From an uncultured bacterium (lineage in GTDB: Bacteria; Actinomycetota; Acidimicrobiia; Spongiisociales; UBA5794): a stretch of 64,000 nucleotides of DNA. The notes beneath the pieces were generated by a model that was not told where the DNA came from, made no database searches, and saw only the letters and a program-made list of their open reading frames with translations. The translations under genes and the position numbers were made by a program. The first letter of the stretch is position 1. Each line of letters starts with the position of its first letter. Location: contig CAWDDT010000009.1 in NCBI GenBank assembly GCA_963801165.1, positions 288,001 through 352,000 on the forward strand, given 5' to 3'. Below are positions 9,233-23,692 of this stretch, piece after piece.

Positions 9233-10357
9233 ATGAATACAGGAATGAGGGCGGTTCCGCGCAGAGCGATCTGGCTCGGCGTGTTTGTCGTCGCGTTCTC
9301 GATGCTTGTCGCGGCCTGTTCCCAGGACACAAAGGACACGACGACGACAACAACAACCGAGGCGGCTGCGGTCGAGACGACTGCTGCCGGCGTCGCTATG
9401 CCTGCACCGTTCGACGGTGAGGTGAACATTGCCGTTGTTCAGAACAGCGGTGCTGGTGACTATTTCCAGCAGTGGACCAATGGTGCCAAGCTGCAAGCTG
9501 ACGCCATCGGCATCAAGTACACGTGGTACGACGCTCAGGCAGACAACGCCAAGCAGGCGACCGACATGGAGACCGCCATCGGCTCCGGTGTCGACGGTAT
9601 CGTGGTCGACCACGGTCAGACCGACACCATGTGCCCACTGATCAACGATGCCCTCAACGCCGGTATCCCGGTCGTCATCTATGACATCGCGATCGCAGAG
9701 TGTGCCCCGGATGCAGTTCAGACCCAGCAGTCCGACGCCAGCCTCGCCGATCTGTCCCTGGGACAGATGCTCGCCGACATCGGCCCGGATCAGGACGTTG
9801 GCTACGTCAACGTGCTCGGTATCGCTCCGCTCGACCGCAGGCATGTGGTCTGGCAGCAGTACACGGCCGACAACAACTGGAACCAGGTCTTCTTCGTCGG
9901 TGAGTTCACCAACGCTGTTGCTACCGACAACGCCCAGCTCGTTGACGCCGCGCTCAAGGCTAACCCCGACATTCGGGCGATCTTCGCTCCGTACGACGAG
10001 TTGACCAAGGGCACCGTATCGGCAATCAACGACAACGGCCTCGCCGATTCGATCTGGGCATACGGTATCGACATCTCGAATGCCGACATCGAGGTCATGA
10101 CCGCCGATGGCAGCCCGTGGAAGGCAACGGCCACGACCGACCCGAACGCGATCGGTGCCGCCGTCATGCGAACCATGGCTCTCGAGCTGGCGGGCCAGCA
10201 GGGCCCGCGTTCGGTGGACTTCCCCGGCGTGTTGGTGACCCAGCAGTTCCTGCTCGACAACAACATCACCAACATGGTGGACTTGCGGGCAACACTTCCC
10301 GAGCTGAACCTGTCCACCGTCCAGTCGGCAGACTGGATCCCGTCGGTCAAGTTCTAG
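9233..10357 (+). CDS. Sugar ABC transporter substrate-binding lipoprotein
   Basis: Lipobox LVAAC, Thr linker, RbsB-like periplasmic-binding features (GVDGIVVD, GIPVVIYD, AIFAPYDE); SD GAAGGAG. Confidence 0.88.
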   Translation: MNTGMRAVPRRAIWLGVFVVAFSMLVAACSQDTKDTTTTTTTEAAAVETTAAGVAMPAPFDGEVNIAVVQNSGAGDYFQQWTNGAKLQADAIGIKYTWYDAQADNAKQATDMETAIGSGVDGIVVDHGQTDTMCPLINDALNAGIPVVIYDIAIAECAPDAVQTQQSDASLADLSLGQMLADIGPDQDVGYVNVLGIAPLDRRHVVWQQYTADNNWNQVFFVGEFTNAVATDNAQLVDAALKANPDIRAIFAPYDELTKGTVSAINDNGLADSIWAYGIDISNADIEVMTADGSPWKATATTDPNAIGAAVMRTMALELAGQQGPRSVDFPGVLVTQQFLLDNNITNMVDLRATLPELNLSTVQSADWIPSVKF

Positions 10358-10439
10358 GAGGTACTCAGGTGGTCGTCGGCAGTATCAGCCGGTGGCCACC
10401 ACAATCCACCTGAGCCCATTGTCTGAGAGGATGATATCG

Positions 10440-11945
10440 ATGGAACCGGCAGTCACGATGGAAGGCATCACAATGGCCTTCGGACCCAATGAGGTGCTGA
10501 AGGGGATTGACCTTGCCATCGAGCCGGGAAAAGTGACGGCAATGCTCGGCGCCAACGGCGCCGGCAAGTCGACGCTGATCAAGGTCCTCTCGGGTGTATA
10601 CAACGGCTACGGGGGCGTCGTCGTCATCGACGGCGCCCCCGTCGTCATCGACCATCCAACCACGGCCAGGGCACTCGGCATCGAGGCGGTGCACCAGAAA
10701 ATCGCCGACGGCATAGTGCCCGGGCTGAGCGTTGCTGAGAACCTGCTGTTCGAGGGGATCGTCAACAACCAGGTGTCGCGGGTCGCCTCTCTGCGCTCGC
10801 TGATGCCGCGGGCGCGTCAGGTTGCGTCCGTTCTCGACCTCGATTGGTCCGACGATCTGCTCAGAGGCGATGTCTACGAGCTGCCAATTGCCGATCAGCA
10901 GCTCCTCCTCCTGGCACGAGCGCTCGATCACCAACCCCGGCTGCTGATTCTCGACGAGCCCACCTCTGCGCTCTCCGAGACCGAGGCGGAGCGTCTTTTC
11001 GACGTGATTCGCCAATTGCGCGACGGCGGCGTCGCCATCTTCTATGTGTCCCACCGCATCGCAGAGATCGACAGCATCGCGGACCGCCTGCTCGTTCTGC
11101 GCGATGGGGTGATCCGCAGCGAGCAGCTGCGACCATTCGACTGGGCGGCGGCGCTCCACGACATGCTCGACGTTGACGAGGCGGATCGATCGAACCGCAG
11201 TGCTGAGCAGCGGGGCACCGATGTGGCCCTCGAGCTCGCCGGCGTGCAACTCCTCCCCAAGTCCCAGCCCTTCGACCTCGTCATCCGCTCCGGTGAGGTC
11301 ACCGGAGTGTTCGGCCTGTTGGGCTCAGGCGGTGGTCAACTCGCTCACGGGATCTTCGGCGCCGAGCCGTTCGTGTCCGGCGAGATGGTCCTCAAAGGCG
11401 AGCCCTACTCCCCGAAAGCACCGGCCGACGCCATCGCCGCCGACGTCTACATGGTTCCCGAAGACCGGGTCGGAGGAACGTTGATCAAGGGCTGGACGGT
11501 GTCGATGATCGCCACCTTCCCATTCCTCGGGGACGTGTCCCGGCTGGGTGTTCTCAATCCTCTGGCCGAGGCGAAGGTGGGCCGCTCAGTGGTCCAGGAA
11601 TTCGGCGTTGTCGCCCAGTCGGAGGCGGAATCGGTCATGTCTCTCTCCGGCGGCAACCAGCAGAAGGTCGTCGTAGGCCGCTGGCTGCGTAAGCACCCCA
11701 CCGTGATGGTTCTCAACGAACCGTTCCAGGGTGTCGACGTCGGTGCCCGCCACGATCTCGCCGAGAAGGCACGCGAAGTTGCCGGGACGGGCTCGGCGGT
11801 GATCGTGATGTCTACAGATCTAGAAGAAATAATGGAAGTTTCCGACCGGGTCGTCGTGCTCGCGGACGGAAATCTCCGACACGATGCATATCTGTCGGAG
11901 ACAAGTAGGGATGAGATCCTGCAGCGACTCTCGGAGGTTGAGTAA
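10440..11945 (+). CDS. Sugar ABC transporter ATP-binding protein (tandem NBD, CUT2)
   Basis: GANGAGKSTLIK, LILDEPTSAL, LSGGNQQKV, GVDVGA. Confidence 0.93.
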   Translation: MEPAVTMEGITMAFGPNEVLKGIDLAIEPGKVTAMLGANGAGKSTLIKVLSGVYNGYGGVVVIDGAPVVIDHPTTARALGIEAVHQKIADGIVPGLSVAENLLFEGIVNNQVSRVASLRSLMPRARQVASVLDLDWSDDLLRGDVYELPIADQQLLLLARALDHQPRLLILDEPTSALSETEAERLFDVIRQLRDGGVAIFYVSHRIAEIDSIADRLLVLRDGVIRSEQLRPFDWAAALHDMLDVDEADRSNRSAEQRGTDVALELAGVQLLPKSQPFDLVIRSGEVTGVFGLLGSGGGQLAHGIFGAEPFVSGEMVLKGEPYSPKAPADAIAADVYMVPEDRVGGTLIKGWTVSMIATFPFLGDVSRLGVLNPLAEAKVGRSVVQEFGVVAQSEAESVMSLSGGNQQKVVVGRWLRKHPTVMVLNEPFQGVDVGARHDLAEKAREVAGTGSAVIVMSTDLEEIMEVSDRVVVLADGNLRHDAYLSETSRDEILQRLSEVE

Positions 11946-13010
11946 GTGGCCACAACAACGATGACGCCGAAGGGCACGAAGCAGGGGCCGCCAGGCACCG
12001 CGCCGCGTCGAGACGCCCGTGACCTGCTCGTCAAGTACGGCTTCATAGCAGTGACGGTGATCTTTCTCGTGTACTTCATGGCGACCCTGCCGGCGTTCCG
12101 AACCTCGTCGACGATGTTCACGATGCTGAAGTACATCTCGGTCGTTGCCATTGCCGGGTTGGGTGTGACCGTAACGATGGTCGTCGGTGGTCTCGATCTC
12201 TCGGTCGGGGCGACCGCCGGCATGTCGGTGACGGTCGCCGCGATGACGATGGTCATCTATGCGCAGCAGGGCTCGGTGGCAGTCATCGCCGTCATCGCGG
12301 CGGGTGCGATCATCGGTGCCGCTAATGCGCTGTTGATCGTGCTCATGAAGATCCCCGATCTGCTGGCGACCCTGGCAACGATGTTTCTCGTCCAGGGCTT
12401 GAAGCTCGTTCCCGTCGACGGGCAGTCGGTGTCCTCGGGGCTGATCCTCCGTGACGGGTCGGTGGCTCCCGGCAAGTTCACGACTGGCTTCCTCAGGATC
12501 AACCGCGGCTCGATCGGGCCGGTGCCATTCCCCGTGATCATCTTCGCGGTACTTGCGATCTTCACCTGGTTCCTGCTCTCTCGCACCAAGTGGGGCCGGG
12601 TCATGTATGCGATCGGGTCCAACCCGGAGGCGGCCCGTCTCGCCGGTGCCCGGGTCGGTCGCTACAAGGCGTTCGCCTACATGCTCTCCGGCATCTACGC
12701 ATCGATCGCAGGCCTGATTCTTGCCTCCCGTATCGGCCAGGGTGACATCTCTGCCGGGAACTCACTACTCCTCGATGCAGTCGCCGTGGCATTGGTCGGC
12801 ACGTCGGTGCTCGGTGTCGGCAAGCCGAACGCCTTCGGCACAGCGCTCGGCGCAATCCTCATCGGCATCCTTCTCACCGGCACGACCATGATGAACTTCC
12901 AGTACTACTGGCAGGACGTCGTCAAGGGCTTCGTACTCCTGGTTGCTCTGATCTTCTCCTTCACTCTGTCGAGACGGAAGCAACGATTCCAGGCGGCGGT
13001 GCCTCTATGA
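11946..13010 (+). CDS. Sugar ABC transporter permease (RbsC-like)
   Basis: GGLDLSVG, RTKWGRVMYAIGSNPEAARLAG motifs. Confidence 0.93.
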   Translation: MATTTMTPKGTKQGPPGTAPRRDARDLLVKYGFIAVTVIFLVYFMATLPAFRTSSTMFTMLKYISVVAIAGLGVTVTMVVGGLDLSVGATAGMSVTVAAMTMVIYAQQGSVAVIAVIAAGAIIGAANALLIVLMKIPDLLATLATMFLVQGLKLVPVDGQSVSSGLILRDGSVAPGKFTTGFLRINRGSIGPVPFPVIIFAVLAIFTWFLLSRTKWGRVMYAIGSNPEAARLAGARVGRYKAFAYMLSGIYASIAGLILASRIGQGDISAGNSLLLDAVAVALVGTSVLGVGKPNAFGTALGAILIGILLTGTTMMNFQYYWQDVVKGFVLLVALIFSFTLSRRKQRFQAAVPL

Positions 13011-14122
13011 GCGCTGATCAGGCCAGCAGGACCATCTGGATCGATCCCGTCGACCCCGCCTCCGTCGTCTGTATCGATCAGCGCCTGCTCCCCTTCGAGT
13101 ACCAGGAAGTTGCCATCCGCACCTCGAGCGAGATGGCGACGACGATTGCCGACATGGTTGTCCGCGGCGCCGGGTGCATCGGGGTGTCGGCCGGCTACGG
13201 CATGTATCTGGCGGCCCTCGCCACCGACGGTCTGGGCGCCGCCGAAGCGGATGCGTCGCTACACATGGATGCCAAGGAGCTCGAGGGGAGTCGGCCGACC
13301 GCGGTCAACCTGAGCTGGGCGGTGCAGCGTCAACTGAGGGAGCTGCTCGGTGTTGAGGGTTCGGAGGAGCGGATCGCCAGGGCCAGGGCGCTGGCGGACA
13401 CTATCGCCGACGAGGACGTGTCGTACTGCGCTGCCATCGGTCGCCACGGGCTGGGCATCATCGAAGACCTCCACGACCGCAAGGGCGACACGGTCAACAT
13501 CATGACCCACTGCAATGCGGGTTGGCTGGCGTTCGTCGAGCACGGAACGGCCACTGCTCCCATGTACGCAGCCCACGCAGCGGGCATCCCCATCCATGTC
13601 TACGTCTCGGAGACGCGTCCCCGCAACCAGGGTGCCCGGCTGACGGCCTGGGAGCTGGACCGGGCCGGGATCCCGGTCACCGTGATCGCCGACAACGCGG
13701 CCGGTCACCTGCTGCAGCACGGCATGGTGGACATGGTCATCGTCGGTAGCGATAGAACCACGATCAGCGGTGACGTCGCCAACAAGATCGGCACCTACAT
13801 GAAAGCCGTGGTGGCCAAGGAGAACGGCGTCCCGTTCTACGCCGCACTGCCATCGAGCACGCTTGATCCCAAGCTGCACGACGGTGTCACCGAGATCCCG
13901 ATCGAAGAGCGGGGCGGGCACGAGGTCACCAAGACGACCGGATGGTTCGACGGCAGGCAGGTCGAGATGCAGTCGGCGGCTCCCGGCGTGGGCGCCGCCA
14001 ACTATGGGTTCGACGTCACCCCGCGCCGGTTCGTGACCGGGATCATCACCGAGCGCGGTGTCTGCGAGGCGAACGAACAAGCAATCCTGGCGATGTATCC
14101 CGAGTTCGCCGCAAAGGGATGA
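13007..14122 (+). CDS. mtnA: S-methyl-5-thioribose-1-phosphate isomerase (paralog 1)
   Basis: IDQRLLP, MVVRGAG, RPTAVNL, THCNAGWLA, ETRPRNQGARLTAWEL, GDVANKIGTY, FDVTP. Confidence 0.9.
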   Translation: MSADQASRTIWIDPVDPASVVCIDQRLLPFEYQEVAIRTSSEMATTIADMVVRGAGCIGVSAGYGMYLAALATDGLGAAEADASLHMDAKELEGSRPTAVNLSWAVQRQLRELLGVEGSEERIARARALADTIADEDVSYCAAIGRHGLGIIEDLHDRKGDTVNIMTHCNAGWLAFVEHGTATAPMYAAHAAGIPIHVYVSETRPRNQGARLTAWELDRAGIPVTVIADNAAGHLLQHGMVDMVIVGSDRTTISGDVANKIGTYMKAVVAKENGVPFYAALPSSTLDPKLHDGVTEIPIEERGGHEVTKTTGWFDGRQVEMQSAAPGVGAANYGFDVTPRRFVTGIITERGVCEANEQAILAMYPEFAAKG

Positions 14123-14151: not shown

Positions 14152-16119
14152 ATGCACAACAGGTGGAGTGAGGAGCGGGCGGCCGGCTTCGAGAGCCCTC
14201 TCGATCGGTGCGTGTATGCCTCGAGACTGCTCGGCGCAGACACGGCGCTCGTTCTGCACGGCGGCGGCAACACATCTGTGAAGCTCAGGGAGCAGAATCT
14301 CTACGGCGAGCCGGTCGATGTGCTCTACATCAAGGCGAGCGGTCGAGACCTCGTCGACATTGACGACGAGGGATTTGCCCCTCTCGACCTCACCCGGGTG
14401 CGCCGGCTCGTCGAGCTGGATGAGCTCTCGGATACCGCGATGCTCAACGAGTTGAAGGGGGCCCGGCTGAGCGCAGACGCACCCGTGCCCTCGGTCGAGG
14501 CGATCCTGCACGCAATCATCCCCAGCCACGCCGTGCAGCACGCTCATCCCAACGCGCTCCTCGCCATATCGAACACCGTCGACGGTGAGGAGAAGGTCAG
14601 AAAGCTATACGGGAGCCGAGTGGTCGTCGTTCCGTACACGATGTCGGGATTCCGCGCCGCGACCGCGGCCGCAAGGGCCTACGCCCGGGAGGCGACCGGC
14701 GAAACTGAAGGTGTTGTGCTCATGAACCACGGCATCTTCACCTTCGGGGATTCACCCCGCGAGGCATATCACCGGATGGTCGACCTGGTCGGTGCCGCCG
14801 AGGACTTCCTCGCCGAGCACTCGATGGGGGGAGAGTCGCCCCGGCCGGATCGAGAGCCCCCGGTCATCGACCGGTGCGACCTGGCCGGCCTCCGCAAGGA
14901 GATCTCGGATATCGCCGGGAAGCCGTGCATCGTGCGTCGTCACCGTGACGAGGTCAGCTGGGCGTTCTCGCAGCGCCCCGACCTGGCAGCGGTGAGCCAG
15001 CAGGGAGTAGCAACACCCGACCATGTCATCTGGACCAAGCGGGTTCCGCTCCTGGGTCGGGACGTTGCCACCTACGCCAAGGACTACGAGGCCTACTTCG
15101 ACGAATATGCGGTCGGGCGCGCGCTCCGAATGCTCGATCCGGCGCCACGGGTGATCATCGACCCCGAGTTGGGGATGGTCACCGCCGGGCCCGATGTCGA
15201 CGCCGAGCAGGCGGCCGCCGACATCTATCTCCAGATCATCGACGTCATCGAGCACGCTGAGGGCCTGGGCGGCTACTCCGCCCTTCCCGCCGGTGACATT
15301 TTCGATCTCGAGTATTGGGAGCTGGAGCAGCTGAAGCTCGACCTCGTTCCCCATGAGGGTGAGTTCACCGGCGAGGTCGCCGTGGTCACCGGGGCGAACT
15401 CAGGGATCGGGCGTGGCTGCGCGCTGGCGCTGCTGGCAAAGGGAGCGGCAGTAGTGGGCCTCGACATCAACCCCGCGGTTTCCGAGATGTCGGACGATCC
15501 CGCCTTCTACGGCATCCAGTGTGACCTCTCCTCGCCGCAGGAAACCTCGGCCGCGCTCGACCGTGGTGTCGAGCGATTCGGCGGCGTCGACATGCTCGTG
15601 GCCGCCGCAGGGCTCTTCCCCGAATCGTCCCCGATCTCCGCTCACGACCCGACCGCGTGGCGCCGAGCCATGTCCGTCAACGTCGACGGACTGGTGCAAC
15701 TCCTGTCGATGATGCACCCCCTCCTCGTGCAGGCGCCGCGCGGCGGTCGTGTCGTGGTGATCGGATCGAAGAACGTCGTCGCACCCGGTCCGGGCGCCAG
15801 CGCCTACTCGGCTTCCAAGGCAGCCGCCAACCAGATCGCACGTGTCGCGGCGCTCGAATGGGCGCCGGAGGGGATCAGGGTCAACTCGGTCCATCCGGAC
15901 GCGGTCTTCGATACCGCATTGTGGACACCGGAGCTCCTGGCGGCACGGGCGGCGCACTACGGCATGACCGTTGAGGACTACAAGCGCCGCAACCTGATGA
16001 GTGTGGAGATCACCAGCGCCGCGGTCGGCGAGGTCGTTGCCACGATGCTCGGCGACGTCTTCGGCACGATTACGGGGGCGCATATCCCCATAGACGGCGG
16101 CAACGACCGCGTGATTTGA
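14152..16119 (+). CDS. Bifunctional class II aldolase / short-chain dehydrogenase
   Basis: LHGGGNTSVK, PSVEAILH, HAH and NHG metal ligands; C-terminal VTGANSGIG and YSASK (YxxxK). Confidence 0.88.
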   Translation: MHNRWSEERAAGFESPLDRCVYASRLLGADTALVLHGGGNTSVKLREQNLYGEPVDVLYIKASGRDLVDIDDEGFAPLDLTRVRRLVELDELSDTAMLNELKGARLSADAPVPSVEAILHAIIPSHAVQHAHPNALLAISNTVDGEEKVRKLYGSRVVVVPYTMSGFRAATAAARAYAREATGETEGVVLMNHGIFTFGDSPREAYHRMVDLVGAAEDFLAEHSMGGESPRPDREPPVIDRCDLAGLRKEISDIAGKPCIVRRHRDEVSWAFSQRPDLAAVSQQGVATPDHVIWTKRVPLLGRDVATYAKDYEAYFDEYAVGRALRMLDPAPRVIIDPELGMVTAGPDVDAEQAAADIYLQIIDVIEHAEGLGGYSALPAGDIFDLEYWELEQLKLDLVPHEGEFTGEVAVVTGANSGIGRGCALALLAKGAAVVGLDINPAVSEMSDDPAFYGIQCDLSSPQETSAALDRGVERFGGVDMLVAAAGLFPESSPISAHDPTAWRRAMSVNVDGLVQLLSMMHPLLVQAPRGGRVVVIGSKNVVAPGPGASAYSASKAAANQIARVAALEWAPEGIRVNSVHPDAVFDTALWTPELLAARAAHYGMTVEDYKRRNLMSVEITSAAVGEVVATMLGDVFGTITGAHIPIDGGNDRVI

Positions 16120-16194: not shown

Positions 16195-16989
16195 ATGGAC
16201 TGGGGCATGAAGCGTCGGCTGGCGCAGATCATCCCGCCGGAGACAGGGCACGCGTTCTTTATCGCCATCGACCACGGATACTTCCTTGGACCAACACGCA
16301 TGCTGGAACGACCCGGCGAGACTGTGCGCGACCTCACTCCGATCGCCGATGCGCTCTTTGTGACACGGGGCGTCCTCAGAAACGCCATCCCACCCGAGAC
16401 CAAGCCGAATGTGATCCTCAGAATCAGCGGTGGCACCAGCATCGTCGGGCCGTCGCTCGAGAACGAGCAGCTGGTCGTTGACCCGGAGGAGGTGATTCGT
16501 CTGGGCGCTTGCGCAGTCGGCATCTCGGTCTTCGTCGGCTCGGAGTACGAACGGGAATCGCTCGGGAACCTTGCCCGTGCGGTGAACCAGTTCGAGCGGT
16601 ATGGCATCCCGGTCATGGCGGTCACGGCCGTCGGCAAGGAGCTCGAGAAGCGCGACGCCCGCTACCTCGCCCTCAGCTGTCGGATCGCAGCAGAGCTGGG
16701 AGCCCGGGTCGTCAAGACCTATTGGTGCGAGGACTTCGAGAAGGTCACCTCTTCGTGTCCGGCACCCGTGGTTATCGCGGGTGGGCCGAAGACCGACGAC
16801 GCCTACGAGGTCTTCTCGTTCGTTCGCGATGGCATCGATCGAGGCGCCATCGGCGTCAACCTGGGTCGCAATATCTGGCAGCACCACGATCCCGTGGGCG
16901 TCGCCCGAGGCTTGCGTGCCGTGATCCACGAGGGCGCGTCACCAGAGCAGGCCAACGCCATGGTGGCGCAGGAACCGGTGGTGGTTTGA
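16195..16989 (+). CDS. lsrF: LsrF-family class I aldolase-fold thiolase (3-hydroxy-5-phosphonooxypentane-2,4-dione thiolase-like)
   Basis: DWGMKRRL...DHGYFLGPT...RIAAELGARVVKTY...IAGGPK...GRNIWQ closely follows E. coli LsrF as I recall it. Confidence 0.85.
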   Translation: MDWGMKRRLAQIIPPETGHAFFIAIDHGYFLGPTRMLERPGETVRDLTPIADALFVTRGVLRNAIPPETKPNVILRISGGTSIVGPSLENEQLVVDPEEVIRLGACAVGISVFVGSEYERESLGNLARAVNQFERYGIPVMAVTAVGKELEKRDARYLALSCRIAAELGARVVKTYWCEDFEKVTSSCPAPVVIAGGPKTDDAYEVFSFVRDGIDRGAIGVNLGRNIWQHHDPVGVARGLRAVIHEGASPEQANAMVAQEPVVV

Positions 16990-16992
16990 CCC

Positions 16993-17289
16993 ATGGAGTT
17001 CCTCGCCCGTCTCGAGCAGAACATCTCTCCGGACATGGATCCGGACCGGCTTGCGGCAGTGAAAACGGCTGAGAAGGCCCGCGGTCGGGAGTTGGTCGAG
17101 GCCGGCAAGCTGCGCCGCATCTGGAGGATCCCCGGGAGGAGGGCGGTATACGCGCTCTACCGGGTCGACAGCACCGAGGAGCTCCACGAGATCCTCAGCT
17201 CGCTGCCGCTGTACCCCTGGATGGACATAGAGGTAACCGCATTGAGCGCCCATGCGCTCGATCCCGAGAGTTGGGAGGGTGTTGCTTAA
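16993..17289 (+). CDS. Muconolactone delta-isomerase family protein
   Basis: 98 aa; EKARGREL...IWRIPG...ELHEILSSLPLYPWMDIEVTALSAH. Confidence 0.85.
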   Translation: MEFLARLEQNISPDMDPDRLAAVKTAEKARGRELVEAGKLRRIWRIPGRRAVYALYRVDSTEELHEILSSLPLYPWMDIEVTALSAHALDPESWEGVA

Positions 17290-17394: not shown

Positions 17395-18609
17395 ATGGCC
17401 CCCGACTACGAGATCCTCAACCCGGAGACGGTCCCGGCATACATCGACAGAACACCCCGGCTGGACGGCATCGTCGACACCTCCACGCTGGAAGTGTCGG
17501 AGGTCGGTGACGGTAACCTGAACCTCGTCTTCGTCTGCAAGGATGGAAACGGCGACGGCATCTGTCTCAAGCAGTCGTTGCCCTACGTCCGGCTGGTCGG
17601 CGAGGGGTGGCCGCTGACACCGGAGCGAGTCATCGCCGAGGCGCGCGGGCTCGCCGCTGCTGTCGATCACGTCCCGGATCTGGTTCCCGCCTATTACGGA
17701 CTGGACGAGGCCAACTATGTGCTGGCCATGGAGAACCTCATTGGCTGGGACATGTGGCGGACCCAGCTGAATGAGGGTGTCTCCCACCCCGGTGTCGGCG
17801 CCAAGCTCGGCCGGTACGTGGCCAATCTCTGTTTCTACACCTCGTTTTTCACCATCGATCAGGGCGAGATCAAAGAGCGGCTCGCCGCAGCGATCAACCC
17901 GGAGCTGTGCAAGATCACCGAGGACCTCGTCTTCACCGAGCCGTACATCGATGTCCCCAACAACAGTTACGTCGATGAGCTGGTCCCCGAGGTGGAGGGC
18001 ATGCGCGCCGACGCCAGGCTCCGCGCCGACGTCGGGATGCTGAAGTACAAATTCATGACCGCAGGGCAGGCGCTGATCCACGGCGACCTGCACACCGGCT
18101 CCGTCATGGTGCGCCGTGGTGAGAACGGCGCCGAGTGCAAGGTCATCGACCCCGAGTTCTGCTACTACGGGCCGGTGGGCTTCGATCTCGGTGCGCTCTT
18201 TGGCAACTACCTCGCCGCCCGGGCCCGCGCCGCAGTTCTCGACCGACCAGCCGAATACCAGCAATGGTTGGCCGATCTGGGTCCGGAGACGTGGGATGCC
18301 TTCGCCGCGGAGATGCACCGCTTGTGGCCGGAGCGGCTCGACAAGACATGGACCGACGGTTTCCTCGAGGCCTGGCTGGCCCAGGTCGCCAGGGACACCA
18401 TCGGGTACGGCGGCTGCAAGGCGAACCGGCGCATCATCGGGCTCGCCAAGGTCACCGACATCCAGCAACTCCCGAACGAAGAGCACGTCAAGGCGGCCAC
18501 GATGGTTCTCCGCACCGCCAGCACCTGGATTCGGGAGCGCGACGGCCTCGGGACCGTCGCCGCGGCCAACGAGGTGTTCGAGACGATCCGGGCGAAGGTC
18601 CTGGGCTGA
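17395..18609 (+). CDS. mtnK: S-methyl-5-thioribose kinase
   Basis: EVGDGNLNLVF, KQSLPYVRLVGEGWPL, ITEDLVFTEPY, LIHGDLHTGS, IDPEF. Confidence 0.95.
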   Translation: MAPDYEILNPETVPAYIDRTPRLDGIVDTSTLEVSEVGDGNLNLVFVCKDGNGDGICLKQSLPYVRLVGEGWPLTPERVIAEARGLAAAVDHVPDLVPAYYGLDEANYVLAMENLIGWDMWRTQLNEGVSHPGVGAKLGRYVANLCFYTSFFTIDQGEIKERLAAAINPELCKITEDLVFTEPYIDVPNNSYVDELVPEVEGMRADARLRADVGMLKYKFMTAGQALIHGDLHTGSVMVRRGENGAECKVIDPEFCYYGPVGFDLGALFGNYLAARARAAVLDRPAEYQQWLADLGPETWDAFAAEMHRLWPERLDKTWTDGFLEAWLAQVARDTIGYGGCKANRRIIGLAKVTDIQQLPNEEHVKAATMVLRTASTWIRERDGLGTVAAANEVFETIRAKVLG

Positions 18610-19691
18610 TGTTGGATCTCTCGCTGGCCGATGACTTCCTCGCCAAGCTGCAACCGTCGGTGGCCTGGGTCGACGATCACATCGAGATCATCGACCAGAC
18701 CAAGCTGCCCGCCGAGCTCGAGATCCTCCAACTGCGCCGGGTCGACGAGGTGGTCGACGTTATCTACCGGCTGGCGGTGCGGGGGGCGCCCGCGATCGGG
18801 GCATGTGGCGCCCTCGGCATGGTCGTCGGCCTCGACGAAAGGCAGCCGCAAACCGCGGCCGACGCAGTTGCCGTGCTCGACGAGCTTGTGGAGACGATCG
18901 GCAACGCCCGGCCCACCGCGGTGAACCTGAGCTGGGCGGTGAAACGCCTGCGGGACGCCGCCGTGTCCGGAAGCGATGCCGCCGGGGTGAGACGGCTTGC
19001 CATGGCGGAAGCCCGGGCGATCATCGCCGAGGATCGCGACGCCTGCACCCGGATCGGTATCAACGGCCGCAAAGAGCTCGAGGGTCTGGACAAGATCCTC
19101 ACGCACTGCAACACAGGCAGACTCGCCACCGCCGGTTGGGGCACTGCTCTCGGCGTCGTCTATGCGAAGGCAGCGGCCGGTGAGCCGGTCGAGGTGCTTT
19201 CCTCCGAAACACGGCCGCTGTTGCAAGGTGCCCGGCTGACAACCTGGGAGTTGCACGACGCCGGTATCCCGGTGACCCTCATGCCGGACGGAGCCAGCTC
19301 CACGGCGATGGCGCAGGGCAAGGTCCAGGCGGTCATTGTCGGCGCCGATCGGATTGCTGCCAACGGCGACACCGCCAACAAGATCGGGACCCTTACCCAC
19401 GCCGTCAACGCCAGGTTCGCCGGGATCCCTTTCTACGTGGCCGCTCCGCTCTCGACGTTCGATACCTCTTTGAGCAGCGGCGCCGGGATAGAGATCGAGC
19501 TGCGGCCCGATGACGAGATGAGGAGGTGGCGGTCGGAGCCGACCGCCCCGGGCGACATTGCGGTGTGGAACCCCGCCTTCGACGTGACCCCCGCCGATTT
19601 GATCACCGCAATCATCACCGAGGTTGGGGTGCTGAAGCCCCCCTATGAGGAGTCGATCCGGGTCGCCTTCGAGGCTGGAGGGAAACCGTGA
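18609..19691 (+). CDS. mtnA: S-methyl-5-thioribose-1-phosphate isomerase (paralog 2)
   Basis: IDQTKLP, VRGAPAIG, RPTAVNL, THCNTGRLATAGWGTALG, ETRPLLQGARLT, GDTANKIGT, NPAFDVTP. Confidence 0.92.
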   Translation: MLDLSLADDFLAKLQPSVAWVDDHIEIIDQTKLPAELEILQLRRVDEVVDVIYRLAVRGAPAIGACGALGMVVGLDERQPQTAADAVAVLDELVETIGNARPTAVNLSWAVKRLRDAAVSGSDAAGVRRLAMAEARAIIAEDRDACTRIGINGRKELEGLDKILTHCNTGRLATAGWGTALGVVYAKAAAGEPVEVLSSETRPLLQGARLTTWELHDAGIPVTLMPDGASSTAMAQGKVQAVIVGADRIAANGDTANKIGTLTHAVNARFAGIPFYVAAPLSTFDTSLSSGAGIEIELRPDDEMRRWRSEPTAPGDIAVWNPAFDVTPADLITAIITEVGVLKPPYEESIRVAFEAGGKP

Positions 19692-20587
19692 GCGAATGGA
19701 AGCAGGCGACCCAAGCGGTTGCCGACGGCATACGCCGGCGGGTGCTCGAGCACGTACTCGCCAACAACGGCGGATATATGAGCCAGGCATGCTCCGCGGC
19801 TGAGATCTTTGCGATGTTGTATTCCCGGGTGATGAACCTCGGTGCCAGCCAGGCCCCTCTCGAGCCTCGCCGGTTTGCGGGCGTGCCCGGCCCGGGAGTG
19901 CCCTTCATCACCGGCGCTGACTACAACGGGCCCCGCGGACCCGGGTACGACCGCTTCATCTTCTCCCCGGCTCACTATGCATTGGTGCTGTATGCCACCC
20001 TGATCGAGGTTGGCAGGCTTGCCGAGAGGGGGCTTGATCACTTCAACGAAGATGGCAGCACGGTCGAGATGATCGGTGCCGAGCATTCCCCCGGTGTCGA
20101 GACCACCACCGGGTCTCTCGCTCAAGCGTTGAGCCAGGCCGGCGGTATCGCCCTGGCACGCAAGCTGCGTGGCGACACCGGCAACGTCTGGGTGATGATG
20201 TCCGACGGTGAGTTTCAGGAGGGACAAACCTGGGAGGCCGTCGCACAGGTCGCCCGCTTCGAACTCGACAACCTCAGGGTCATCGTCGATGCGAACGGCC
20301 AGCAATGCGACGGCTGTCTCGACGAGGTGGAGACGGCCGACCCGTTGACAAACAGGATCCGGGCGTTCGGTGCCAGCGCCATCGAGAGCAACGGGCACGA
20401 TCTCGACGGTCTGGAAGAGGCGATGACTATGGCGACCGGCAAGCCGCACTTCGTGATTGCCCGGACGGACCCGGTGCGCGGGCTTCCTCTGTTTGCGGAT
20501 AGAGCACCCCTGTTGCACTACTTGCGTTTCACCTCACCCGAGGAGAGGGCCCGTTACGAGGCGGCTTACGAAGAGATGGTGAGTTGA
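19688..20587 (+). CDS. Transketolase-like ThDP enzyme, N-terminal subunit
   Basis: DRFIFSPAH, PGVETTTGSLAQ, SDGEFQEGQTWEA...DANGQQ ThDP-binding motif. Confidence 0.88.
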   Translation: MSEWKQATQAVADGIRRRVLEHVLANNGGYMSQACSAAEIFAMLYSRVMNLGASQAPLEPRRFAGVPGPGVPFITGADYNGPRGPGYDRFIFSPAHYALVLYATLIEVGRLAERGLDHFNEDGSTVEMIGAEHSPGVETTTGSLAQALSQAGGIALARKLRGDTGNVWVMMSDGEFQEGQTWEAVAQVARFELDNLRVIVDANGQQCDGCLDEVETADPLTNRIRAFGASAIESNGHDLDGLEEAMTMATGKPHFVIARTDPVRGLPLFADRAPLLHYLRFTSPEERARYEAAYEEMVS

Positions 20588-20588
20588 G

Positions 20589-21596
20589 ATGGAGATCGTC
20601 AAGCGGCCGCACGTTCAGAATTTCATCGATTGGAGTCGCGATAAGCCCGAGGTGGTCGTCCTCACCGCCGATCTGACCAACTCGAGCGAGGTGGGGCAAT
20701 GGCGGGACACCTACCCCGACCGCTTCTTTGCGATGAAGATGGCCGAGCAGAACATGATGGGTTTCGCCGCCGGGCTTGCCCGCGAGGGCTACGAGCCGTG
20801 GATACACACCTTCGCCGTGTTCATCTACCGGCGTCCGCTCGATCAGCTTGCCATGTCGATCGCATACCCCAACCTTCCGGTGCGGTTTGTCGGGTTCCTC
20901 CCCGGGATCACGACTCCAGGCGGGGTCACTCACCAGGCTATTGAGGATCTCGCCGTGATGCGGGCGACGCCGAACATGACCATCCTCGAGACCGGCGACG
21001 CCACCGAGGTAGAGAGCGTGCTCGATGTCGCCCACGGTGTCGAAGGGCCCGTCTACATCCGGATGTTGCGAGGCGAGGTACCCCGGTTGTTCGCCAAAGA
21101 CGAGCCGATGCGGCTCGACAAGGTCAGGGTGCTCAGCGAGGGCGACGACGTCACCGTGTTCACCGCCGGTATCACCACAGAAGAGGCCATGCGAGCGGCC
21201 GCTCCTCTCGCCGCTGCCGGGGTCGGGATGACCCATGTCCATGTCTCGACCCACAAGCCGTTCAGCGATCCCCTGATCGTCGAGTCGATCAAACGCGCCA
21301 GGTACGGCGTGATGACGCTGGAGAACCACACGATCATCGGTGGCCTCGGCTCGGCGGTGGCTGAGTTGATGGCGGAGAACGCCGTCGGGCAACGTCTTGT
21401 CAGGCTGGGTCTGCGTGACACGTACGCTCACGGCGCCAGCCGGCAGTACCTGATGAAGGAGTACGGTCTCGATGCCCCCGCTCTTGTGAAGGGCATCGAA
21501 GACCTCCTCGGGAGACCGACGGGGATCACGGAGCCGGATCTCGAAGCGGTGCGTATCGAAGCCGTCCATAGCATGGCCAAGGCGGAGGCGCTGTGA
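20589..21596 (+). CDS. Transketolase-like ThDP enzyme, C-terminal subunit
   Basis: LTADL, AEQNMMGFAAGLA, THQAIED, GPVYIR, ENHTIIGGLGSAVAE. Confidence 0.9.
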   Translation: MEIVKRPHVQNFIDWSRDKPEVVVLTADLTNSSEVGQWRDTYPDRFFAMKMAEQNMMGFAAGLAREGYEPWIHTFAVFIYRRPLDQLAMSIAYPNLPVRFVGFLPGITTPGGVTHQAIEDLAVMRATPNMTILETGDATEVESVLDVAHGVEGPVYIRMLRGEVPRLFAKDEPMRLDKVRVLSEGDDVTVFTAGITTEEAMRAAAPLAAAGVGMTHVHVSTHKPFSDPLIVESIKRARYGVMTLENHTIIGGLGSAVAELMAENAVGQRLVRLGLRDTYAHGASRQYLMKEYGLDAPALVKGIEDLLGRPTGITEPDLEAVRIEAVHSMAKAEAL

Positions 21597-22726
21597 TGAT
21601 CGAGCCGACTTCCCTCACCGTCAGCGGCGGCCGAATCGAAGCCGTATACGAGTTCTATGGTGACGTTGCCGAGGCGGAAGCGCGCGTCGATGCCTTGCGG
21701 GTGGAACAGACGATCGAGTTCCCGGCCGACCTCGTCCCGGATGACGACATCCAGCGGGAGGTCGTCGGCCGTGTCGAGTCGCTCGAAGTAGTAGGCGACG
21801 ATGTGACGCGTGCCGCGATCAGCTATGCCGTGGAGGACACCGGGTTCGAACTCCCCCAGCTCATGAACGTCCTGTGGGGAAATAGCGCCTTGCTGCCGGG
21901 AATCCGGCTCGTGGACTTCACCCTGCCAGATTCTCTGCTGGAGTACTTTCCCGGACCGACGTACGGAATCGCGGGTCTCCGCGAGATGTTCGACGCACCG
22001 TCCCGTCCTCTGCTGGCGACTGCGCTGAAACCGATGGGTCTGTCGTCCGAGCGGCTGGCCGGCGAGGCATACGAGCTTGCGCTGGGTGGAATCGACATGA
22101 TCAAGGACGACCACAGCCTCGCCAACCAGCCTTTTGCCCCGTTCGCAGAGCGGGTGCAGCGCTGCGCCGAGGCGGTGGCCAAGGCGAACGAGCAGACCGG
22201 TTTCGGGGCCGTCTATATGCCGAGCATCAACGCCCCGTACAACGAGCTGGAGCGGCGTGTGGAGGTTGCCCTGGACGCCGGCGCAGGTGCGTTTCTCGTC
22301 CTCCCCGGTCTCACCGGGTTCGATCAGATGCGCTATTTGGCCTCCGAGGTCGACGTCCCCATCATGGGGCACCCCGCCTTCCTCGGCTCGTACTCTGCCT
22401 CCCCGACAAACGGCATTGCCCACGGCAAGCTGTACGGAACGTTGATGCGTCTCGCCGGTGCCGACCTCTCGATCTTTCCGAACTTTGGCGGCCGATTCAG
22501 TTTCACCCGTGAAGAATGCCGTGACGTCGCCGAGCGCCTCACCGAGCCGCTTGGCGACTTGAAGCCGGCGTTCCCGGCACCGGGTGGAGGCATGACTCTC
22601 TCGAGAGTTAGCGAGATAGTCGACTTCTACGGCAACGACGCGGCGCTTCTCATCGGCGGCGATCTCTATCGTGGGGAGAGCCTGGCGAGAACCGCAGCCG
22701 CCTTTCGCGAAGCGGTATCCGCCTGA
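21593..22726 (+). CDS. RuBisCO-like protein, form IV (KDDH type, resembling 5-methylthioribulose-1-P 1,3-isomerase)
   Basis: EQTIE, GNSAL, FPGP.YG, ALKPMG, GGIDMIKDDH, HPAF, PGGG motifs; only 377 aa; no small subunit or PRK. Confidence 0.88.
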   Translation: MMIEPTSLTVSGGRIEAVYEFYGDVAEAEARVDALRVEQTIEFPADLVPDDDIQREVVGRVESLEVVGDDVTRAAISYAVEDTGFELPQLMNVLWGNSALLPGIRLVDFTLPDSLLEYFPGPTYGIAGLREMFDAPSRPLLATALKPMGLSSERLAGEAYELALGGIDMIKDDHSLANQPFAPFAERVQRCAEAVAKANEQTGFGAVYMPSINAPYNELERRVEVALDAGAGAFLVLPGLTGFDQMRYLASEVDVPIMGHPAFLGSYSASPTNGIAHGKLYGTLMRLAGADLSIFPNFGGRFSFTREECRDVAERLTEPLGDLKPAFPAPGGGMTLSRVSEIVDFYGNDAALLIGGDLYRGESLARTAAAFREAVSA

Positions 22727-22756: not shown

Positions 22757-23692
22757 TCAGGCGAGAAGTGCCCTGGCGAGACCGTCGTCGATGGCCAGTT
22801 CGTTGATGATGCCTGCGGCGATTGCTCCCTTGACCGGTTCCACCTTCTCAACTCCGCCCGCGGCCGCGATGACCCGTTTCGAAGCCCTCAGATCGTCGAG
22901 TGTCAGTGAGATGGGGTGTAGTGCGTCCGGTTTCACGGCGTTGCCATCTGCGTCGTAATACAGGCCAAAAACCTCTCCGACCGCGCCTGCGGCGATGATT
23001 TCCTCCATGGCGTCTTCATCGAGATAGCCGGCCTGCACCAGGAGCGACTCGGGGCCGATGACGCCCACGGCCACCATCACCATGTCGGCCTTGCGGGCGC
23101 GCTCGAGCGCCGTCGCCACCGGCTCGGATGCGAAGAAGTTGCCGGCGACCTCGGCCGATGGGGCGAATCCAGGGGATGGGATGTGCATGACTCTGGCGCC
23201 GAACTTCAGCCCCAACGTGTTCGTGACCTCGACCGCGGGGGCGATGTTGGCCGTGGTCGTGTGACCGAAAGCGTCCACCAGCGTCACTCCGGAGGTACGT
23301 GTGCGCCGCGCTCGTTGGGCGGCGGCACCAAGCGTTCGTCCCCACCCGGCCGCAATCGTGGTCGAGCCGGTTGCCACCATATGCTCCAATCTGCGGGCCA
23401 TGGCAGTTGCGGCCCCCTCTCGGGGTGACTCGCCATCGAGCGCTACCTCGACGGTAGCCCCGGCCAGCCCGTACTTCTCGATGAGTTCCTCAGCCAGGCT
23501 CGCGGTCTCCGGCAGCGGCTCAGTTACGATCACGCGCACGATGCCGTCGCGGGCAGCGTCGGCGAGGAGACGGCTCACCGTTGACCGGGAGATCCCCAAC
23601 CGATCGGCAACGGCCTGTTGATTGAAACTACGCTCGTGATAGAGCCAGGCCGCCCGGATTGCGAGCTCTCTGCGAGGATTGTCGTCGTCCAC
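22757..23692 (-). CDS. SorC/DeoR/LsrR-family sugar-binding transcriptional regulator
   Basis: AAWLYH...QQAVADRLGISRSTVSRLL HTH; GWGRT, GAVGEV, AGGVEK, LAID sugar-binding domain. Confidence 0.92.
   Translation of the reverse strand: MDDDNPRRELAIRAAWLYHERSFNQQAVADRLGISRSTVSRLLADAARDGIVRVIVTEPLPETASLAEELIEKYGLAGATVEVALDGESPREGAATAMARRLEHMVATGSTTIAAGWGRTLGAAAQRARRTRTSGVTLVDAFGHTTTANIAPAVEVTNTLGLKFGARVMHIPSPGFAPSAEVAGNFFASEPVATALERARKADMVMVAVGVIGPESLLVQAGYLDEDAMEEIIAAGAVGEVFGLYYDADGNAVKPDALHPISLTLDDLRASKRVIAAAGGVEKVEPVKGAIAAGIINELAIDDGLARALLA

Follow-up and report, generated by a model that had tools for sequence, protein, structure and literature searches.

The DNA analysed here, called the window, is a stretch of 64,000 nucleotides on contig CAWDDT010000009.1 of assembly GCA_963801165.1, which comes from an uncultured bacterium of the phylum Actinomycetota. 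It carries an operon in which a gene for a class I aldolase-fold enzyme related to Escherichia coli LsrF (LsrF-like hereafter) is followed directly by a gene for a small protein of the muconolactone isomerase (MIase) family (MIase-like hereafter; Table 1). Comparison of related loci revealed that the constant unit is this LsrF-like/MIase-like pair, usually together with a gene for a fusion of a class II aldolase and a short-chain dehydrogenase/reductase (SDR), named AldSDR here. The genes for MtnK and MtnA, those for a split transketolase and a RuBisCO-like protein (RLP), and those for Dak kinases are interchangeable front or side modules. For the pair, a route is proposed in which the SDR domain oxidises 5-deoxy- or 5-methylthio-ribulose-1-phosphate to a 2,4-diketone, the LsrF-like enzyme cleaves the diketone with coenzyme A (CoA), and the MIase-like protein carries out a proton transfer; we put the chance that this route is right at a little below even.

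Conservation of the gene pair across operon variants

Relatives of the MIase-like protein were sought in a scan of one genome per species, which returned 42 loci. In 27 of these the protein is 62-91% identical to that of the window and always lies in a cluster of the window's type, mostly in metagenome-assembled genomes (MAGs) labelled Acidimicrobiia. The other 15 loci, with at most 52% identity, have different surroundings: muconate-cycloisomerase-type genes adjoin in four, 2-oxoacid dehydrogenase genes in three, and other genes in the rest. In L035, L040 and L045, MIase-family genes (43-48% identity) are found amid 2-oxoacid dehydrogenase E1/E2 genes, which is not a catechol context, and L035 and L040 add CoA-transferase or hydratase genes nearby.

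The 27 cluster-type loci were combined with the window and a metagenome locus (L118) into a set of 29 loci, whose MIase-like proteins are 62-100% identical. In 27 of the 29, the gene immediately preceding MIase-like is LsrF-like; three of the 27 (L012, L021 and L024) have a contig edge that cuts LsrF-like and leaves only its C-terminal part. Because this order is kept in so many loci, the adjacency is not a matter of chance. An earlier note on this DNA had seen an lsrF gene followed 3 bp later by a gene for a 98-aa MIase-family protein, and this was confirmed in the window (TGA at 16987-16989, ccc, ATG at 16993). Of the 28 loci whose sequence continues beyond MIase-like, 24 have MtnK as the next gene. 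Within the window's class the cluster is rare, a cluster-type gene being present in 3 of 351 sampled genomes. Near-identical clusters (MIase-like 71-87% identical) also occur in MAGs labelled Gemmatimonadales, Nitrospirota and Planctomycetota (L008, L018 and L030), which could be the result of horizontal transfer or of mis-binning.

What surrounds the pair varies from locus to locus. The order in L023 is AldSDR, LsrF-like, MIase-like, MtnK, the second MtnA (MtnA-2) and the regulator, and in L021 it is LsrF-like, MIase-like, MtnA-2 and the regulator, both without transketolase and RLP; in L012 the order is LsrF-like, MIase-like, transketolase and RLP. In L028 and L032, AldSDR, LsrF-like and MIase-like are followed by Dak1/Dak2 kinase genes (L028:10309-11304; L032:1547-3306) and not by MtnK and MtnA. 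It may be that the AldSDR/LsrF-like/MIase-like trio serves other ketose phosphates too. RLP is always accompanied by the split transketolase in the cluster loci. When whole assemblies were searched, all of them MAGs without known completeness, the assemblies of L023, L021 and L028 yielded no RLP orthologue, and those of L021, L012 and L028 yielded no MtnK. With a constant pair and swappable modules, a functional link of the MIase-like protein to RLP, or to MtnK as its mutarotase, becomes less likely. L032 has a gene for a sugar-binding protein after Dak1/Dak2. L033 is a decayed cluster: at the expected place of AldSDR (L033:9243-9976) it has only remnants of the first MtnA (MtnA-1) and of LsrF-like, in different frames from each other, with MIase-like and MtnK intact.

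A second survey started from LsrF. Homologues at E<=1e-30 were found in 52 of 401 sampled genomes of the phylum, and 40 loci were fetched. A dehydrogenase adjoining LsrF is the rule in them: a co-directional gene for a zinc-dependent alcohol dehydrogenase (Zn-ADH) adjoins the LsrF homologue in 29 of the 40 (among L079-L115), often as an isolated two-gene unit, and these LsrF homologues pass the LsrF equivalog cut-off. Among individual loci, L092 has an SDR gene downstream of the LsrF homologue, L116 has the order LsrF, Rpe-like epimerase, AldSDR, and the MtnK/RLP cluster is represented by the window's own locus only. L099 reads AhcY, LsrF, Zn-ADH, MtnA; AhcY is also nearby in L100 and L101. 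In a tree rooted, by assumption, on E. coli LsrF, all LsrF-like proteins of the cluster type group together in a single clade (support 100), which branches from within the Zn-ADH-linked proteins. From this placement it is probable that the lineages with AldSDR and MIase-like have lost a Zn-ADH partner.

Identity of the LsrF-like and MIase-like proteins

The LsrF-like protein matches the Pfam DeoC/LacD family (2.1e-24) and passes the cut-off of NF006081, the NCBIfam LsrF equivalog (332.7 bits, cut-off 297). It is 43% identical (113/261) to LsrF of E. coli K-12, which is also its best solved relative; the models for ADH synthase and fructose-bisphosphate (FBP) aldolase match it too, below their cut-offs. 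In the published account of LsrF (PMC2728841), Lys203 is given as the Schiff-base residue and Asp57 as the general base, with His58 and a phosphate site beside them. The LsrF-like protein keeps K174, D26 and H27 in the places of Lys203, Asp57 and His58, and G196, G197, G224 and R225 in those of Gly226, Gly227, Gly253 and Arg254. The Schiff-base lysine, the Asp-His pair and the phosphate site are kept in all 64 of the aligned LsrF homologues.

The MIase-like protein matches the Pfam MIase family PF02426 (1.4e-30, 105.7 bits against a cut-off of 26.7) and scores below the cut-off of the muconolactone-isomerase equivalog TIGR03221 (90.8 bits against 130.6). Its best solved relatives in a phmmer search are the 5-chloromuconolactone dehalogenase ClcF and the muconolactone isomerase of Pseudomonas putida, both with E about 1e-16. 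A structural model, predicted with a pLDDT of 92.3, retrieved ClcF with Z 16.3, a root mean square deviation of 1.2 A over 93 residues and 39% identity, and YciI-like proteins as the next matches (Z 9-10). On this model, the MIase-like protein is confidently assigned the MIase/ClcF fold. The antibiotic biosynthesis monooxygenase (ABM) protein 4hl9, with Z 6.1, lies in the range of common arrangements, and LsrG was not among the 50 matches listed.

The MIase-like protein shares with the muconolactone isomerase CatC and with ClcF the same Pfam family and fold, and Glu27 of the aligned EK motif, which we take to be catalytic in CatC and ClcF, is kept. Unlike in these two enzymes, however, the positions of Tyr50, Asn52 and Ser54 are occupied by Arg, Val and Ala, and the gene lies in a sugar-phosphate operon. 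Two further ideas about this protein were not kept. A protein-atlas look-up with the MIase clusters left out offered DUF3303 and YciI as relatives, at scores (0.86-0.87) below the meaningful level. Arg49/Arg50 had been considered as a phosphate site special to the clade, and this was dropped, as distant MIase homologues also carry PGRRA, a motif that is itself one of the patterns used to fetch them.

The window genome (4.55 Mb in 13 contigs, 98.19% complete) allowed the gene content to be checked beyond the operon. The earlier note had seen no catechol genes, lsrK or lsrG nearby; this was borne out genome-wide by searches with PF00775, LsrK and LsrG, and copies of lsrK or lsrG elsewhere in the genome that could explain the lsrF gene were looked for and not found. 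No LuxS was detected in the genome (the control was positive in 6 of 14 genomes), and E. coli LsrG had no match in it at E<=1. No LsrK orthologue was found in the genome either, the best matches being FGGY paralogues of 23-29% identity with 114.5 bits against a cut-off of 528, which is weakly controlled in that no control genome passed it. Four ABM-domain genes are present, on contigs C4 and C6 and none on the window's contig C9. The MIase-like gene is the only one of its family in the genome. Intradiol dioxygenase (PF00775) is absent from the genome, with the control positive in 6 genomes; this was the test for a catechol context, beside which muconate cycloisomerase was not searched for separately. 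The genome has thus no source of muconolactone, and judged by its gene content the MIase-like protein is not an enzyme of a catechol pathway. Neither acireductone dioxygenase nor methylthioadenosine (MTA) phosphorylase was found above cut-off in the genome.

Proposed route and competing explanations

In the proposed route, LsrF-like and MIase-like, with AldSDR encoded just upstream, would be the constant core of a module for ketose-1-phosphate catabolism. The ketose-1-phosphates of the window operon would be 5-deoxy-D-ribulose-1-phosphate and 5-methylthio-D-ribulose-1-phosphate, made by MtnK and MtnA from imported sugars that arise as by-products of S-adenosylmethionine (SAM). In the first step, the SDR domain with NAD(P)+ would oxidise the C4 hydroxyl to give a 3-hydroxy-2,4-diketone 1-phosphate. 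For the 5-deoxy sugar, chemical reasoning suggests that this product would be exactly 3-hydroxy-2,4-pentanedione-5-phosphate (P-HPD), the known substrate of LsrF, from which LsrF forms dihydroxyacetone phosphate (DHAP) and acetyl-CoA. In the second step, K174 of LsrF-like would form a Schiff base next to the phosphate end and the acyl group would pass to CoA, so that DHAP would be formed together with acetyl-CoA or, when the sugar is the methylthio one, (methylthio)acetyl-CoA. In the third, the MIase-like protein would act on the labile diketone as an isomerase, 3-epimerase or tautomerase. The MIase family moves protons through enolates, and the job would be comparable to that of LsrG in the lsr operon, perhaps also to that of the Rpe/LsrE-like epimerase encoded at the same place elsewhere. 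RLP and the split transketolase would form a separate, detachable branch. The diketone is proposed because a dehydrogenase adjoins LsrF as a rule and C4 oxidation of 5-deoxyribulose-1-phosphate gives P-HPD; we infer the substrates, the order of the steps and the exact MIase-like reaction.

How AldSDR occurs elsewhere bears on the first step. A metagenome scan gave 80 loci with AldSDR homologues of 45-66% identity. MtnA adjoins AldSDR in 23 of the 80; when only the 48 loci flanked by 1.2 kb or more on each side are counted, the figure is 17. MIase-like is present in one of the 80, which is a cluster-type locus. Throughout L119-L197, the AldSDR homologues (45-54%) that adjoin an MtnA-type isomerase (23/80) have no other cluster gene beside them, a pairing that resembles a two-gene version of the DHAP shunt. 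The literature describes the related fusion RhaEW as an aldolase plus aldehyde dehydrogenase that converts rhamnulose-1-phosphate to DHAP and lactate, and reports its dehydrogenase domain to be essential for the C-C cleavage activity, which fits an oxidation before cleavage. The aldolase-like domain of the fusion may offer a hydrolytic or aldol alternative, which would explain why AldSDR can stand alone with MtnA.

Several observations weigh against the diketone route. Since AldSDR is mostly found with MtnA alone, and RhaEW is described as aldolase plus aldehyde dehydrogenase, AldSDR may be self-sufficient and give LsrF-like no diketone. LsrF was near AldSDR in only 7 of the 80 metagenome loci, the pairing with MtnA alone being commoner, and where AldSDR and LsrF occur together the third partner differs between lineages: an Rpe-like gene in L138 and, from the phylum set, L116; a TANGO2-like gene in L132 and L167; a cupin gene in L150; and none in L120 and L181. 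The Zn-ADH/LsrF pairs carry no isomerase, so a helper is dispensable there, and two of the 29 loci, L011 (LsrF-like deleted) and L033, have MIase-like without an intact LsrF-like. The absences read from MAGs are also to be counted here, given the uncertain completeness of those assemblies. In PMC2728841, Asp251, which adjoins the catalytic lysine of E. coli LsrF, is proposed as an LsrF-specific acid/base; Asp251-Met252 are replaced by Asn222-Leu in the window protein (Asn222 codon at 16858-16860). In the alignment, Asn-Leu is found in the whole cluster clade, in the related Zn-ADH-linked clade L079-L090 and also in L091 and L092, and the other homologues have Asp-Met. Finally, the earlier note had suggested that the MIase protein could replace LsrG. 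A helper role of this kind is plausible, as the MIase-like gene takes lsrG's place after lsrF and is the most constant neighbour of LsrF-like, but a likeness in sequence to LsrG was not found by BLASTP (E 0.82) or by hhalign profile comparison (probability 0.1%).

A broader version of the diketone route would make the role of LsrF in autoinducer-2 (AI-2) breakdown a late, specialised offshoot of a more general route, 'oxidise, then thiolyse'. In it a Zn-ADH, an SDR or an aldolase/SDR fusion would make 2,4-diketones from deoxy-ketose-1-phosphates, LsrF would turn these into DHAP and acyl-CoA, and, in the Acidimicrobiia operon studied here, the MIase-fold protein would have been recruited as a non-homologous equivalent of LsrG or LsrE. 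Bacteria free of LuxS would then derive P-HPD, LsrF's authentic substrate, from 5-deoxyribose, and the MIase family would acquire a first substrate of the sugar-phosphate kind. We regard this generalisation as possible and rather doubtful.

An alternative without CoA chemistry would make LsrF-like an ordinary class I aldolase, or a transaldolase, acting on ribulose-1-phosphates, and would give MIase-like an unrelated role, for example on a reactive by-product. The LsrF family has an aldolase fold, the lysine and aspartate of an aldolase are kept, the residue equivalent to Asp251 of E. coli is an asparagine, and the ADH-synthase and FBP-aldolase models match, albeit below cut-off. However, a class II aldolase domain is already present in the operon, the LsrF-like protein passes the LsrF equivalog cut-off, and a simple aldol cleavage would leave the neighbouring dehydrogenase in 29 of 40 loci unexplained. 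We judge this alternative unlikely.

The earlier note had connected LsrF to RLP. In that route RLP would isomerise methylthioribulose-1-phosphate to 1-methylthio-pentulose-5-phosphate, the MIase-like protein would eliminate methanethiol from the 2,3-enediol to yield phospho-4,5-dihydroxy-2,3-pentanedione (P-DPD) and/or isomerise P-DPD to P-HPD, and LsrF-like would release DHAP and acetyl-CoA. Its appeal is that MtnK, MtnA, RLP, LsrF-like and MIase-like are encoded in one operon, and that in L012 transketolase and RLP come immediately after LsrF-like and MIase-like. The RLP does not score as an MtnW; among solved structures it is best matched by another RLP, of 378 aa (3qfw). The route is also redox-neutral, which would explain a cluster LsrF clade without the Zn-ADH of its relatives, and ClcF, the closest solved relative of MIase-like, eliminates chloride, so that a family precedent exists for the thiol elimination that the note had considered for the MIase protein. 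A further point for it is the cupin with weak dimethylsulfoniopropionate (DMSP)-lyase likeness encoded between AldSDR and LsrF in L150. The specific chain through the RLP product, however, is not supported. The pair is kept without RLP and transketolase in L023, L021, L028 and L032, searches of three of these assemblies (L023, L021 and L028) brought up no RLP orthologue, and AldSDR/LsrF units without RLP exist in other lineages (L116, L120 and L138). The route also gives no role to the split transketolase, which is the constant companion of RLP and itself a possible sink. A pair that persists without RLP, or with Dak genes, does not support an RLP-to-P-DPD route, and given a dehydrogenase pairing in 29 of 40 loci and an SDR just upstream, it is no less likely that the diketone is supplied by oxidation. 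The RLP route is chemically attractive for the full-length operon and, on account of the RLP-less variants, less likely as a general explanation; overall we consider it quite improbable.

Least probable is that the MIase-like protein is a mutarotase which, as RhaM does in rhamnose operons with an aldolase/SDR fusion of their own, would supply the right anomer of an imported furanose (methylthioribose or 5-deoxyribose), here for phosphorylation at C1 by MtnK. In favour of this, MtnK is encoded directly after the MIase-like protein in 24 of the 28 loci that could be assessed, RhaM likewise has a small alpha+beta barrel, and rhamnose loci with RhaEW are described as carrying a mutarotase too. On the other side, MIase-like is kept in four loci without MtnK following (L012, L021, L028 and L032), and the search of three of these assemblies gave no MtnK. 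LsrF-like is also a steadier neighbour than MtnK (27/29), and hhalign detected no profile similarity to E. coli RhaM.

A search of the literature found no paper joining LsrF with methylthioribose or 5-deoxyribose, and none joining an RLP with muconolactone or with transketolase and methylthioribose. New here are the LsrF-like/MIase-like pair that stays invariant across variants, the Dak-linked variant, the Zn-ADH ancestry of the LsrF clade and the change of Asp251 to Asn. Radical-SAM and polyamine chemistry cannot avoid producing 5'-deoxyadenosine and MTA as waste, for which the known ways of disposal end in aldehydes. If the diketone route is true, its ending in DHAP and acyl-CoA would conserve thioester energy. 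Many genes annotated as 'LsrF' occur in bacteria with neither synthesis nor import of AI-2; the route would supply a metabolic function for them, and they should then not be taken as markers of quorum sensing. To our knowledge the MIase family is known only from aromatic ring-cleavage pathways, and it would be extended to sugar-phosphate chemistry.

The surrounding operon and known systems

The pair lies within 12 tightly packed genes on the + strand, which form one operon with a divergent gene for a SorC/DeoR regulator at its end (Table 1).

Table 1 Genes of the window operon and its regulator, with positions in the window
Gene product	Position	Strand	Basis and remarks
Ribose-type periplasmic sugar-binding protein, ABC importer	9233..10357	+	Peripla_BP_4 1e-30; ATG 9233 behind GGAAGGAG
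ABC importer ATPase, two ABC domains	10392..11945	+	Pfam ABC_tran, two stretches; NCBIfam sugar-importer ATPases below cut-off
ABC importer permease	11946..13010	+	Pfam BPD_transp_2 4.3e-40
MtnA-type isomerase, paralogue 1 (MtnA-1)	13007..14122	+	TIGR00512 390.9 bits, cut-off 279
Class II aldolase/SDR fusion (AldSDR)	14152..16119	+	NF006196 912.9 bits, cut-off 831; Pfam Aldolase_II and adh_short
LsrF-like class I aldolase-fold enzyme, putative CoA-dependent thiolase	16195..16989	+	264 aa; NF006081, identity to E. coli LsrF
MIase-family protein, putative proton-transfer isomerase partnering LsrF-like	16993..17289	+	98 aa; PF02426
MtnK-type 5-methylthioribose/5-deoxyribose kinase	17395..18609	+	TIGR01767 393.7 bits, cut-off 275; likely start ATG 17395 behind GGAGGAG
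MtnA-type isomerase, paralogue 2 (MtnA-2)	18609..19691	+	TIGR00512 402 bits, cut-off 279; ATG overlaps MtnK stop
Split transketolase, N-terminal (thiamine pyrophosphate-binding) subunit	19688..20587	+	Transketolase_N 2e-21; best solved relative split-chain transketolase 6yak
Split transketolase, C-terminal subunit	20589..21596	+	Pfam Transket_pyr and Transketolase_C
RuBisCO-like protein (RLP), form IV	21593..22726	+	RuBisCO_large 4e-28; best solved relative 3qfw, 378 aa, 258.8 bits
SorC/DeoR-family sugar-phosphate regulator	22757..23692	-	Pfam Sugar-bind 4.8e-46

AldSDR is the sole dehydrogenase of the operon. Its signature residues, E116, H130, H132 and H193 of the aldolase domain and Y552 and K556 of the SDR domain, are invariant among seven aligned sequences, and by analogy the first four are presumably the catalytic Glu and the metal ligands. 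The RLP scores below the cut-offs of both MtnW models (NF007095, 212.1 against 409; TIGR03332, 156.9 against 513.6), so by score it is not an MtnW, the 2,3-diketo-5-methylthiopentyl-1-phosphate (DK-MTP-1-P) enolase. The earlier note mentions LsrR as a sensor of P-DPD. The regulator of the operon, kept at the operon-end position in most related loci, is a generic member of the SorC/DeoR family, with 103.8 bits on the LsrR model against a cut-off of 486 and 167 bits on the DeoR model against 420.

The arrangement resembles E. coli lsrF-lsrG in that a gene for an LsrF homologue is closely followed by one for a small alpha+beta protein of about 97 aa, with a sugar ABC importer and a SorC-family regulator nearby. 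It differs in that the window genome is without LsrK, LsrG and LuxS, the small protein belongs to the MIase family and not to ABM, and the operon carries MtnK, MtnA, RLP and transketolase in place of AI-2 genes.

A second comparison is with the DHAP shunt, or 5-deoxyribose salvage (MtnK/DrdK, MtnA/DrdI and the class II aldolase Ald2/DrdA). As in the shunt, the kinase and isomerase of the window pass their cut-offs, a class II aldolase domain is encoded after MtnA, and DHAP is the expected product. Unlike in the shunt, the aldolase is fused to an SDR; the window adds LsrF-type and MIase-family proteins, a second MtnA, RLP and the split transketolase; and the proposed end product would be an acyl-CoA, not an aldehyde. 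AldSDR has the same two-domain architecture as the rhamnulose-1-phosphate aldolase/lactaldehyde dehydrogenase fusion RhaEW (YuxG), which acts on a deoxy-ketose-1-phosphate to give DHAP and an acid. AldSDR nevertheless scores 413 bits on the RhaEW model against a cut-off of 567.75, yet passes NF006196, and its usual neighbour is MtnA, not rhamnose genes.

The MTA-isoprenoid shunt of Rhodospirillum rubrum uses MtnA, a DeepYkr RLP and a cupin methylsulfurylase, and methanethiol is expected from the RLP product. RLP also adjoins MtnA-type genes in the window; in contrast to the shunt, no cupin is encoded in the operon and the split transketolase always goes with RLP. A cupin of 138 aa with weak DMSP-lyase likeness was met in L150 (L150:2845-3261), between the AldSDR and LsrF homologues and followed by a Dak2-domain gene and RpiB.

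The reaction assigned to MtnA-1 is the conversion of 5-methylthio- or 5-deoxy-ribose-1-phosphate to the ribulose-1-phosphate. MtnA-1 and MtnA-2 both pass the equivalog cut-off and share only about 40% identity, as judged from cross-matches in L011; the two paralogues may divide the methylthio and the 5-deoxy sugar between them.

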